Shown here one piece after another: positions 300 through 32,500 of a stretch of DNA of 64,000 nt. Source of the DNA: Leptogorgia sarmentosa (taxonomy: Eukaryota); assembly GCA_964658305.1 (NCBI GenBank), contig OZ210884.1, positions 2,790,001 through 2,854,000 of the forward strand, in the 5' to 3' direction. The position numbers and the translations under genes are program-made. The notes under the pieces were generated by a model. That model was given only the letters and a program-made list of their open reading frames with translations, was not told the origin of the DNA and did not search any database. Numbering within the stretch: the stretch's first letter is position 1; each line of letters starts with the position of its first letter.

Positions 300-1367
300 A
301 TATATGTTATTTACCGGCTTCGCTCGGTCCGGATAAGGGAAAACCGGACCGAGGTCATGCAATGGCTCGAGGCCGAAGGCCGAGAGCCATTGCATGACCG
401 AGGTCCGGTTTTTCCTTATCCGGACCGAGCGAAGCCGGTAAATAACGTTTTTATTTTTTTGGTCCGGTATACAATCATCAAATTTTAAGAAATTTTGGTA
501 AAGCAAGCGTGTATATTCAAGAGTTTGGCGGAATCTTTACCGTTTTATTGTAAAATTATATTTGTGCGCGTGATTTGCACACGTCTTACATTATCAATTC
601 GAAATTTTATAACAACATTTTCCCATTTATGGTAGAAAGCAAGCCATATTTGGCAAGTCAGTTAAATAATCAAAATTATTATTCACTTTATAGTATTCTC
701 AATTTTGATTGGTCAATTTACCTGCAAATAACTGCGTGCAAATAATAGTCTGAGCATGCGCATTTGTTAAAAAGGTTGCTCACCTGCAAATAATAGTCTG
801 ACCATGCGCATTGCGTCACTTTTTTGTAAACAATGGCGGCTCGTTTTCCTGAACTATCAGAAGACGAGCTGTCTTGTTTACTAGAGGAAAAAAATTCAGA
901 TGGTACAAAAAAAGCCACCAAAACGGCCGTCAGTGTCTTCCCGGCAATATTTAAAAGAAAGAAAAATTTAAAAGAAGAAGGTTTTTTCTGTAAACCAGTA
1001 TTATTTTTTTATGAAATAAAATTTGTATGTAAAGCTCGTTGTATACGTCTACCTTGTAAGTATGCTTTGTAAGTGAATAATAAAACAATTATTGGACGAG
1101 ATCTCGCAAAATATCGCGATTTTGTCGATGGCTCGCAGATCAATTATTTGCCTCTGCCTTCGGCATCGGCAAATAATTGATCTGCTCGCCACCGACAAAT
1201 CGCGATATTTTGCTCGACCTCGTCCAATAATTGATAACTATTCGTCAGATTAGTTTAAAAAACCGTTAGCGGTCCGGTTGTGCGGTCCGTATCGTGAAAA
1301 ACCGGACCGCAAACGAAGCAATCTGATTGGCTAAAAGGCATGGATACCGGACCGGAAAAAAATAAAA
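300..1367 (+). mobile_element. Hairpin-capped non-autonomous element (family A), with family B nested inside
   Basis: 141-bp palindrome at 306-446. Inverted pair ttttattttttt-ggtccggtat (about 448-470) and ataccggacc-aaaaaaataaaa (about 1344-1367). Arm sequence is echoed at 1270-1310. Confidence 0.7.
675..1241 (-). mobile_element. Hairpin-capped element (family B) with a Crypton-like tyrosine-recombinase N-terminal remnant
   Basis: Palindrome at 1086-1233; inverted pair attattcac (about 677) and gtgaataat (1073). The ORF start at 833, MAARFPELSEDELSCLLEEKNSDGTKKATKTAVSVF, resembles Crypton/DUF3504-type YR N-termini and then degenerates. Confidence 0.6.
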
Positions 1368-1672
1368 ACGAATCTTGGCTTAAAGTGGTTATATTTCAAA
1401 CATGAAATTTGGGTAAAATGAAAATATAGTTTCTTAAAGTTAAAACATTCCAAAACGTCTTATGCGAATATTTTACATGAAAGTTAAGCTTAATGACATT
1501 GGCACTAACACTTCCAATTTTGCTTTTACTTTAATTATAATACTAAATCCATAATAAATCAATTCGTTCGCATCTATCAGAGAAAAAGAGAAAAAGACAC
1601 CGGAAAATCACAGCCACTATTGCACGTGTAAACGAGCCTTTAGAGACGTCTAGTTCTATTCATTTTTTTCAG

Positions 1673-29500: not shown

Positions 29501-32500
29501 TACTCTTATTTATGATACGAAGAGACTTTTAAACATCCAAACGCACGTCAGCAGACAACTAACGAATAGTGACTAGTATTATAATCAATTAAACTGTTTT
29601 ATTAATGAATTAGTTGCCTGATGGTTGCATTTTTGCATGAAACTTAAGGTAGCAAGTTATTCATTGTAAGAACTTTAATAAATTATTGATAGCTCTACTA
29701 TATTAATTCGGTGTCCCACAATTTCTGAGACATCGGACACGACTCATAATGAGCCGTGTTTTTCCCTGAAACTCATCTACACTATAGATGGGTCCCAAAA
29801 GGACGAAACGGTTCCGTCTGTAGTTAGATACGCTCCATTAGCTGATGAGGTTACACCGAGGCAGTGTTGAGCACTCCACTCAAGACAAGACTATGCTGCA
29901 AGCCATAGTGCAACGCTCACTGCGCGTGCGCAGTTTGAGCACTCTGGCATAGTTTCGGTGCCCCACAATTTGTGAGACATGGAACACGACTCATAATGAG
30001 CCGTGTTTGTTCCTGAAACTCATCTGCACTATGGCCGCTATTTTGAATTTAGCCAGGAGCGAGTGATCTGAGTTTTTGTTGACATTTGTAAACAAGCAAT
30101 ATTTTGCATAAATCAACGCCAGTGCCCAAATACATGTTCGACATCAGAATGCACAAGCAGAAACGAAGAACGCGCCTACTTCGAAAGTTGCCCTTAGTTC
30201 GCCGCAATTTTGTGGAGACAGAAATTTGACTGAGAAAAGACAGGAGCTCGCATTCCACATCCACCATTTGGTGATTGACAGTTTATGTGCTACCAGGATT
30301 AAAGTATATAGAGTATAATCGTTAAGCTCTAATCGAAGATTGAGATATATTTGGCTGTGCATATGTCTGTTTCAATGAGCTTTCGCGTTGCGATTTTTTA
30401 CGTTGGTTACCCTTCATAGATAATGAATACAATTATGTCAGTCTTGGGTGCCTGGTACAAGTTAGTACACGTCATATTGAAACTTACCAAAGGAGACAAG
30501 ATGGTCGTCATCAAGAAGGGAGAAACATAGAGCAATAGTCAGCAGATTGAAAAAGTTGTAATTTCCAGTGGCAATGATCAAAACTTGGAATAACACCTGA
30601 ATTGACAGAGAAATCAAAATTATCTAGAATTCAAGCTTAGGCAGTGTCGAAACTACTCAGGAATACAATGCAAAAGCTTTGCTTAGCTACAGGCTGAAAG
30701 TTGCAGTTCGCACACGACAGTGATAAATCTGCTGCCAAGATACTAAACGTCTTTATACAGTAATACCGCTTTATAATACCGCTTTAACGGTGTGAAAGCA
30801 ACAGCGTTAGTTCCATGGACATTGGACTATCCATCGTTGCGTTCGGGTGGTTTTTATTTTTATCCGAGACGAAATTGCAGCATTGAAATTACACCAGTGT
30901 GCTAGTGGCGAAGCCAGCCTGATAATTTGGTCATGCTATGTAAATTTAAGCCGCATCCGGACGAAGCTCGAGCGGACTATTTAAGAAATAGATAACGAGT
31001 CGCGTGCCATTATGCTGTTATAATGCACGAGGGCAATGTTGGGAGAATACGAGAGAATCGCGTAAAACACGAGGCATAGCCGAGTGTTTTACGCGATTCT
31101 CGAGTATTCTCACAACATTGCCCGAGTGCATTATAACAGCATAATGGCACGCGACGAGTTTTTCTATTTCTTTTATAATATAAGAGAATATTAGCGCAAC
31201 AAAAAACTTCGTTAGGAAGATCAAAATTACAATTCTCTTTACATGTAATCAAGCGTGTTCTCAAATGTTGCCAAGCAGCAACACAGCTTTATTCCTTTAG
31301 CTGAGCGAAAGCAAACAATTCAAGCGTTTTTTATGGACGTATTTTTAGTATATATGTATCTTTATTGTCTTTTTATCAAACCAAAAAGTCGCGGGAGAAT
31401 TTAATAGCTAGACGCGTGCATTACGCTGTTATAATGCACGCTCATTAGCCAATCACTTTGCAGATTTTGTCCTACTTATATTATAATTGCTCATAGACAA
31501 CAAGGCCAAGTTGTCTAATTGTTTTAGTATACACTCTATGCCCAGGATTATTTATATCAAGAAAATTCTTCAGAAACCTCAGCAAAACGCGAGTTTTCTG
31601 CAGTAGCCATATTGTTTTCCTCTGCTTTTTCGCCAACGGTGGTTTATCACGCAATAGACAACGGCTGAGTAGCCAATCAGAAAGTAGCATTTGTAATAGA
31701 CGATGGTTGGGTGCATACTAATTCTATGAATGCAGAAGGCACGATGAGCGTACACATTTCCATAGCATTACCAAAATCTCGGACTGCTTTCGCCACTGAA
31801 GTATGTGCAGTAGATTGAATACAACATACCTGAAGGTAGAAAGCAAAAATACGGAGCGACCGTATGGGAGAAAAGAATAAGAACGGGATTGGTCCTTCAA
31901 TAACGAATCTATAAACGATTGAAAAGTTTAAAAAAAAAGTAAAAATAGCACGTCTGCCTCTAGTGGGGGGAATTGTGAATCAAATTTTTTGTCAATTTGA
32001 AAATTAGCTACTGTAAAATATTGTGTGAAGACTTTGTTGTAGCTGCATTAATAAAAATGAACACGATCACAAAAATCAGAAATTAAAACATACTGTATCT
32101 ATGCATGGATTGTATTCCTTGCGTATTTATTTATAAACATTCTTCTCGGGTTATACCTTCCCTTATTTACGTCGTAAAATTCGGATACAATTTTGAATTC
32201 GAAGTGCAGAAAAAACCCCCCGATAAAAAATGAAAATGCCCGCATGGCACCTTGTTGAAATTTCCGAGCTCATTTCCAATCACTGTTCTTGTTTTGTCAA
32301 TTTCAACTGCATTCTGCGATTTCAAATAAAATTGCACTTATATCACAGTCGAAGTTATTAATTTTCATTGTTTATTACTACTTTTAATAAAAAAATATCA
32401 CCCAAATCAGAAATAAGCAACTGACAAAGATTTAAAAACCAAAAGAACAATTAAAATTCTTACGTCATTGCAACGCTAAATCTTTGAACCCAATCAGGCA

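Follow-up and report, generated by a model that had tools for sequence, protein, structure and literature searches.

Hairpin elements in the window

The DNA analysed here, called the window throughout, is a stretch of 64,000 nucleotides from Leptogorgia sarmentosa (contig OZ210884.1, positions 2,790,001 to 2,854,000). It is AT-rich animal DNA (GC 34–44%), and pieces of an alpha-galactosidase, a rhodopsin-family receptor and LMF1 were the genes recognised in it. A first-pass annotation made from the sequence alone had pointed to seven palindromes, all of which were confirmed, at 306-446, 1086-1233, 26349-26489, 28786-28975, 30983-31172 and 47564-47671 and, in decayed form, at 61374-61507. The two that it had called partial are present as a truncated copy of family E (47564-47671) and a decayed, inverted copy of family C (61374-61507). 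The analysis makes it moderately probable that animal Cryptons, elements with a tyrosine recombinase (YR), carry these hairpins as the structure of their 3′ end, and that the hairpins likely act as a folded single-strand recombination site of the integron-cassette type. The elements concerned are listed below.

About 303-1372 (ends not fixed), plus strand: element A, interrupted by B
306-446, plus strand: family A hairpin with 69-bp arms, a GAA loop and two clean GA/GA loops; no autonomous partner found among 80 YR loci
447-470, plus strand: family A T-tract and inner short inverted repeat, with its partner at about 1345-1370
675-1236, minus strand: element B, very probably a non-autonomous Crypton deletion derivative of 562 bp, inserted precisely into A without target duplication
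833-979, plus strand: decayed 5′ piece of a Crypton YR gene in B, reading toward the hairpin, with a frameshift at 940
1086-1233, minus strand (template strand): family B hairpin with a GAA loop and three GA/GA loops
About 16770-16910: second J copy (J2), which serves as the empty site for D2
26346-26745, plus strand: element C, 400 bp, with its hairpin at 26349-26489; ends set by analogy
About 26493-26512 (inner) and about 26722-26744 (far partner), plus strand: inverted repeats of element C
27272-27898 (ends not fixed), plus strand: family K, with a branched (Y-shaped) hairpin, a GA/GA loop and a decayed open reading frame (ORF)
61-269 and 40656-40733: other K pieces
28785-29292, plus strand: element D1, 508 bp, with its hairpin at 28786-28980; ends set by analogy
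30982-31487, plus strand: element D2, 506 bp, with four GA/GA loops; lies in a J element, no duplication
31488-31721, plus strand: family J remnant with hairpin arm, T-tract, inverted repeat, CCAAT and far inverted repeat; same anatomy
47564-47671, plus strand: family E hairpin, left-truncated, with a GAA loop and one clean GA/GA loop
61129-61507, minus strand: C′, decayed inverted copy of family C

The strand of each hairpin was set from the side of its T-tract, and in this orientation the mismatches are as strand-specific as had been claimed: 14 of the 15 two-by-two loops in the seven hairpins are GA/GA and none is TC/TC, the sole other loop being a CG/TA in the decayed copy. The GA/GA loops lie at recurring distances from the apex (about 5–6 and 24–26 bp), in families of little sequence likeness. 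The tips are also of the predicted GNA type, with GAA in A, B, C and E and GTA in D1; the ATA tip of D2, an element 96% identical to D1, is likely a CpG-decayed GTA. Tandem sheared G.A pairs form in DNA in a pyrimidine-GA-purine context (PMC10085684, cited here from excerpts, as are the other PMC sources unless their main text is named), and mini-hairpins capped by GNA are unusually stable in DNA, markedly more so than their RNA counterpart (PMC13037366). When both strands were folded, the GA strand was 2.7–7.2 kcal/mol lower in five of the seven hairpins.

The expected enrichment of GA/GA over chance was partly supported by a window-wide census made without energy terms. It was seen when 5-bp flanking stems were required (5 GA/GA among 38 loops, against 0–1 in each of 20 shuffles), but not at the looser setting of 4-bp stems, where 7 of 316 loops were GA/GA and six shuffles gave 2–6. 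No GA/GA pattern was found in the window palindromes at 6430-6783, 18848-19073, 36267-36386 and 45369-45445; the first three, together with 45344-45495, are other inverted repeats or structures resembling miniature inverted-repeat transposable elements (MITEs).

The remaining outline of the elements, a T-tract and a short inverted repeat whose partner lies at the far end near a CCAAT motif, was found in A, B, C, D1 and D2. The statement that the families have no obvious sequence in common holds for most pairs (z of at most 2.2) but fails for B and C, whose similarity exceeds that of shuffled sequences (z 8.5–9.8). Summed contig depth over C, D, J and K was hundreds of times that of the flanking DNA, which marks them as high-copy repeats and is not a copy count. 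The decayed ORF of K runs away from the hairpin, the opposite of the Crypton layout, and neither a relative nor a Pfam family was found for it; K is left unassigned.

In the two J copies (16822-16845 and 31494-31517), the 8 nt at the centre of the hairpin arm are not the same: the plus strand is of TC type in one and AA in the other. The AA is likely a CpG-decayed GA, and the difference would have arisen by inversion or by arm conversion. A flip/flop rolling-hairpin reading of J was dropped, as arm-to-arm conversion explains the inverted 8 nt of J2 equally well.

Recombinase genes and full-length relatives

The YR piece in B starts with an ATG at 833, and the 49 residues that it encodes share 75% identity (E 3.5e-10) with the beginning of P0007, a protein of 389 aa with matches to DUF3504 and Phage_integrase; other copies of the piece have one letter less at 940. 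The same two families were matched by the proteins of loci L117, L124, L136 and L145. The catalytic residues are kept in the aligned relatives (R169 in 45 of 46, K203 in 44 of 46, H290, R293 and H316 in 46 of 46, Y325 in 45 of 46), and the best fold matches of a predicted model (predicted local distance difference test score 82) were QRICH1 and Cre. Named relatives of the window piece are KIAA1958-like and occur in cnidarians and one bivalve.

Autonomous relatives with the same ends and a full YR ORF were found in metagenomes, where the best 80 of 244 stretches retrieved with a YR alignment were studied. The B hairpin is 90.6% identical over 160 nt to YR locus L127, C matches L192 on both sides of the YR gene as well as the hairpins of L136 and L134, and D is related to the ends of L161 and L164 (z 10.8). 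Because of these matches, B, C and D are almost certainly deletion derivatives of YR Cryptons. These families are non-autonomous repeats of Crypton type, as had been supposed, but they are not unrelated elements: B, C and D derive from one superfamily, and the grammar that the families have in common is therefore most simply explained by common descent under constraint.

On the coding strand, these elements consist of a short repeat, a reversed CCAAT box, the YR gene, the partner repeat, the hairpin and the end; the YR gene is deleted in the window copies. The terminal repeats measure 12–20 nt, one of them being internal to the hairpin end, and the hairpins have stems of 60–100 bp (130–200 nt in total). 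One family is represented by five copies (1789 bp) and another by three (2202 bp); within each, the copies begin and end at the same base, and their flanks differ. In five loci of 1.5–2.2 kb bounded by both ends, the YR match was the only long coding-strand frame (two minus-strand frames, of 137 and 125 aa, were not searched).

A long hairpin starts 220–550 nt downstream of the YR match in 23 of the 52 loci with at least 650 nt of downstream DNA, compared with 2 of 39 loci examined upstream. The 23 include near-identical copies; 15 of them (without L115, L116, L118, L119, L141, L163, L164 and L180, dropped as redundant) were combined with L127 and L191 into a set of 17 non-redundant hairpins. 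In this set, read on the template strand of the YR gene, where the GNA tip also lies, GA/GA accounts for 32 of the 51 two-by-two loops and TC/TC for none. Loci with a hairpin occur throughout the YR tree, invariably in one orientation, and hairpin presence is not clustered on it (14 changes, with 137 of 500 shuffles as low); the tree was a quick version used only to show this spread. Some of the loci lacking a hairpin (L120, L133 and L192) are visibly truncated or deleted in the centre.

The surroundings of the loops are equally regular. Across five window and 11 locus hairpins, 77 of 80 half-sites read pyrimidine-GA-purine, and this context is held through compensatory swaps between half-sites (CGAG opposite CGAG, or TGAG opposite CGAA). 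The GA/GA loops might in principle be a functionless mutational by-product of decaying palindromes, given that CGAG contains a CpG, a mutable site, and that old copies gather many other mismatches (L131, L167). Such an origin is hardly credible. GA/GA takes two adjacent transversions, and simulated decay of a perfect palindrome produced it in 0.16–0.65% of two-by-two loops, against the 63–93% seen; moreover, the loops are one-sided relative to the gene and most complete in the youngest, near-identical families, and decay erodes them to AA/GA or perfect pairs. Strand polarity and conserved context rule this explanation out.

Replacement of a GA/GA loop by perfect pairs was also seen between individual copies, namely between D1 and D2 (28963-28975 and 31160-31172), between B (1095-1105) and L127, and likewise in L115, L131 and L179. 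This looks like arm-to-arm template switching, and in metagenome contigs it could be assembly collapse.

The hairpin might instead act as RNA at the 3′ end of the YR transcript, as a terminator, an antisense signal or a double-stranded RNA signal. It does lie just downstream of the YR gene, and RNA can form tandem G.A pairs too. The GA strand serves as the template, however, so that UC/UC loops and a UUC tip are what the YR mRNA would contain; the foot of the hairpin falls on the insertion junction, and the RNA form of the mini-hairpin is markedly the less stable one (PMC13037366). A role as RNA is accordingly quite improbable.

Searches beyond the metagenomes gave few relatives. No relative of P0007 and no match to the family-specific patterns was found in viral contigs; 30 viral-contig loci matched by the YR alignment over its last 40–75 residues only were taken as phage integrases and set aside. 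A scan of the genome collection gave two loci, L225 (2870-3310) and L226 (2990-3160), in which contigs of bacterial metagenome-assembled genomes hold animal-like DNA (GC 32–42%) with B-clade Crypton hairpins. Contamination by host DNA is the most likely source; the copy in L225 is non-autonomous and complete. A 17-nt motif of the apex (GA/GA loop and GAA tip) was observed in 114 viral-contig loci (L001-L114) as short hairpins, none with a long arm; many of the contigs are shorter than 10 kb, and 53 of 88 matches lie outside ORFs of at least 120 aa. The motif is possibly a general folding module of single-stranded DNA.

Insertion junctions and a possible single-strand mechanism

The empty site of B was found in contigs of other A copies: in 4 of 4 runs, drawn from two studies, they pass directly from 673 to 1236 and lack exactly 562 bases; two letters at the junction fit either side. 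The insertion of B is precise and without target duplication. D2 interrupts J, and the same site is uninterrupted, again without duplication, in the J copy at 16806-16835. The claimed lack of target-site duplications was thus confirmed at two sites, both paralogous. Metagenome loci were excluded as whole empty sites, since L117 and L119 have the same 5′ flank and different 3′ flanks and assemblies can be chimeric across the element. Neither outcome named beforehand as refuting the idea was seen: the mismatches are non-random, and the partners encode a YR and leave no ordinary duplication. The elements also differ from DDE transposons and MITEs, which have inverted repeats at both extremities and duplicate the target; here one repeat is internal to the hairpin end, and neither empty site shows a duplication.

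Nested elements of Crypton type were observed at 303-1372 and 30975-31721, with B in A, D2 in J and A in a piece of K; the boxes of these elements are similar to the preferred target.

The flanks themselves carry conserved letters. At the hairpin end, A.TA was present on the coding strand in 13 of 16 B-clade junctions against a background of 1.8%, so that the GA strand reads TA.T directly before the element; TAAT or TATT likewise closes the element at its far end. Outside that end, 7 of 14 distinct flanks have TTAT at an offset of exactly five bases (12 of 14 have at least three of its four letters there), and no other offset has the exact box in more than 1 of 14. The element's own TTAT box lies six bases after the junction, compared with five in the target, and D shows the same offset, with its own ATAG six bases in and ATAA or ATAG five bases out (D1, D2). 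Recognition by structure rather than sequence, as first proposed, is not supported in that form, because the junctions carry these sequence boxes.

When the ends were joined in silico, the stem grew by 7–13 bp in 10 of 10 elements, each time leaving two bases of the 5′ arm in surplus. Credible partners came out of an automatic inverted-repeat search for the L115 and L161 families, L124 and L182 alone, and matches of 9–11 nt elsewhere were taken as chance; gapped pair counts for genomic flanks (8–10), inflated by the gaps, were dropped as a statistic. Five of five copies in the L115 family have the same eight bases at the hairpin end, next to five different 3′ flanks; therefore, no donor spacer is carried along. 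Spacers of unequal length, and the fact that no donor sequence travels with the element, speak against two strand exchanges. Cleavage by tyrosine recombinases falls 3′ of the box that they bind, and for this reason the strand cut at both junctions would be the GA strand, the one that folds.

The short inverted repeats and the stem-loop also recall Helentrons, and the elements could be non-autonomous members of that group (HLE2), moved by an HUH Rep/helicase with the YR as captured cargo. HUH enzymes read single-strand hairpins, and B and D2 each sit between two T. Helentrons have the same outline, with short terminal inverted repeats of 12–16 nt, a stem-loop beyond the right one and no target duplication, and they often insert between T and T (PMC11417382). 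However, the YR is the only long coding-strand frame of the end-to-end elements, and it alone is found in the partners of B, C and D; hairpin-bearing YR loci occur all over the tree in one orientation, which cargo capture would not yield; and D1 and the L115 family have A or C, not T, after the far end. Besides B, 3 of 14 far-end flanks of the B clade start with T. The hairpins here also differ in being 130–200 nt long with GA/GA loops. A Helentron origin is very unlikely overall, and for B, C and D it is largely refuted, although structure-based classifiers would likely mislabel these Cryptons as Helentrons.

A folded single-strand mechanism, slightly favoured on the present sequence evidence, would run as follows. 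The GA strand would become single-stranded, for example as the lagging-strand template, and sheared G.A pairs would let this strand, but not its TC/TC complement, fold stably. The far-end repeat would pair with the hairpin foot and bring both ends together, and the YR would cut the GA strand just 3′ of TA.T at both ends, releasing a single-strand circle. In the circle the hairpin foot would form a two-box YR site with two unpaired bases, a mimic of the double-stranded target. One strand exchange with an AT-rich double-stranded look-alike target would follow, and replication would resolve it into a new copy with no need for spacer homology. In the reaction of attC with attI, one strand is likewise exchanged and resolved by replication, and CTX and IS200/605 are named as other single-strand cases (PMC3458562).

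Several observations weigh against this mechanism or its generality. The circle, the single-stranded intermediate, binding and cleavage are steps that we infer from sequence, and a joint of the far end to the hairpin start was absent among the contig joints listed. The E and C′ hairpins have no predicted strand difference, and the differences are modest overall. The far inverted repeat was found by complementarity and the ends of C and D1 by analogy, so that only the constant two-base register is informative. No integron integrase was among the fold matches listed for the predicted YR. Twenty-nine of the 52 YR loci have no hairpin at the threshold used, eight of them with an unbroken ORF; L138, L146, L153 and L157 have no apex motif in 659–1750 nt of downstream DNA, and A (z 3.4), E, J and K have no YR partner among the 80 loci. 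Finally, a double-stranded circle junction would also be a two-box site with an 8-bp spacer, which fits a double-stranded donor.

This last point leads to an unlikely but substantial alternative, in which the ends are Crypton ends but the YR recombines the double-stranded circle junction and the hairpin does another job, for example as a single-strand origin or primer for copying the excised circle, with the GA/GA loops blocking cruciform extrusion in the chromosome. The two inverted boxes around 8 bp would suit it, most GA/GA loops lie 5–80 bp up the stem and away from the crossover, a circular intermediate is the standing Crypton model (PMC3212892), and GNA mini-hairpins occur at single-strand initiation sites of phages and plasmids (PMC13037366). 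It leaves four features unexplained: the boxes of target and element differ by one base in their offset, the joined foot always has two bases in surplus, a far-end inverted repeat has to abut the cut, and the strand that folds is also the one predicted to be cut. Fungal and oomycete CryptonF and CryptonS, also YR-only DNA transposons with a proposed circular intermediate, have direct repeats of 5–6 bp at their ends (PMC3212892), as conventional two-strand exchange would leave; the present elements do not.

Known systems, other features and significance

In integron cassettes, a short far-end piece completes the stem on circularisation, as the far-end repeat would here. Integron cassettes and the single-strand attP of CTX phage resemble the present elements in using a YR, in having the site at the 3′ end of a gene, in unpaired bases that favour one strand and in little target homology (PMC3458562). 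They differ in that the recombinase gene here lies inside the mobile unit, that dispersed two-box sites of AT-rich sequence take the place of a single attI as targets, that sheared GA/GA loops and a GNA tip produce the strand bias, that no IntI was among the fold matches listed for the protein, and that single-strand use, proven there, is inferred here. It is finely balanced, leaning towards yes, whether animal Cryptons are self-mobilising elements like integron cassettes, the first eukaryotic YRs to recombine a folded single DNA strand; the strand would then be chosen by the GA/GA loops and the GNA tip, and one exchange with a short AT-rich two-box target would be finished by replication.

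The closest described group is CryptonA of animals, which is alike in its single YR gene with DUF3504, the residues R-K-H-R-H-Y and a length of about 1.5–2.2 kb (PMC3212892), and in abundant non-autonomous deletion derivatives and the lack of target-site duplication (PMC3212892, PMC5753468). The human relics Eulor5/6 belong to the same comparison group and were assigned to Crypton by terminal similarity (Kojima 2018, PMC5753468). On this description the elements look CryptonA-like, and their subgroup may be CryptonA or CryptonV/H. The excerpts of Kojima and Jurka (2011, PMC3212892) give animal Cryptons as having no terminal repeats, direct or inverted, with termini listed as n.d., and those of Frith (2022, PMC9004415) add nothing further on Crypton ends; the main texts of PMC3212892 and PMC5753468 do not contain "palindrom", nor that of PMC5753468 "hairpin". 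By comparison with published CryptonA, the ends are defined here as a split inverted repeat and a hairpin of 60–100 bp whose GA/GA loops lie on one strand, with TA.T as the rule at the junctions. Neither Crypton hairpins nor, for eukaryotes, this single-strand route of recombination turned up in the open literature, searched at the level of listings and abstract openings, although Repbase Reports, Dfam or the 2019 Kojima review may mention the palindrome. The superfamily itself is known, and its end structure and junction logic are apparently undescribed.

Other features were also observed in the window. Two tandem gene duplications consist of copies 82–83% identical, one (8882-10838 and 14757-16628) with an ORF of 550–616 aa without a Pfam match at E 0.01, the other (48171-49552 and 50679-52035) of a rhodopsin-family receptor. 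An open frame of 197 aa on the minus strand (54141-54734) had no Pfam match at E 1; its middle may resemble a small lysozyme-like protein. Micro- and minisatellite arrays lie at 11925-12115, 14507-14709, 33435-33612, 34931-35321, 40079-41914 and 46045-46251.

The mode of excision and insertion of animal Cryptons has been open since they were described as lacking terminal repeats (PMC3212892). With exact ends, a rule for the junctions, a target motif and young elements of 1.8–2.2 kb that are still intact, the mechanism becomes directly testable with one protein and short oligonucleotides; the data also provide a rule for telling these high-copy Crypton repeats from Helentrons. If the folded single-strand reading is true, site-specific recombination on single strands would extend beyond bacteria, with their integrons, CTX and IS200/605, and a small eukaryotic recombinase able to insert a single-strand circle at targets that lack homology to it would merit attention as a tool. 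It would also account for the missing terminal repeats and target duplications of animal Cryptons, and many long-hairpin repeats of invertebrates now filed as unknown or Helentron-like would be Cryptons.

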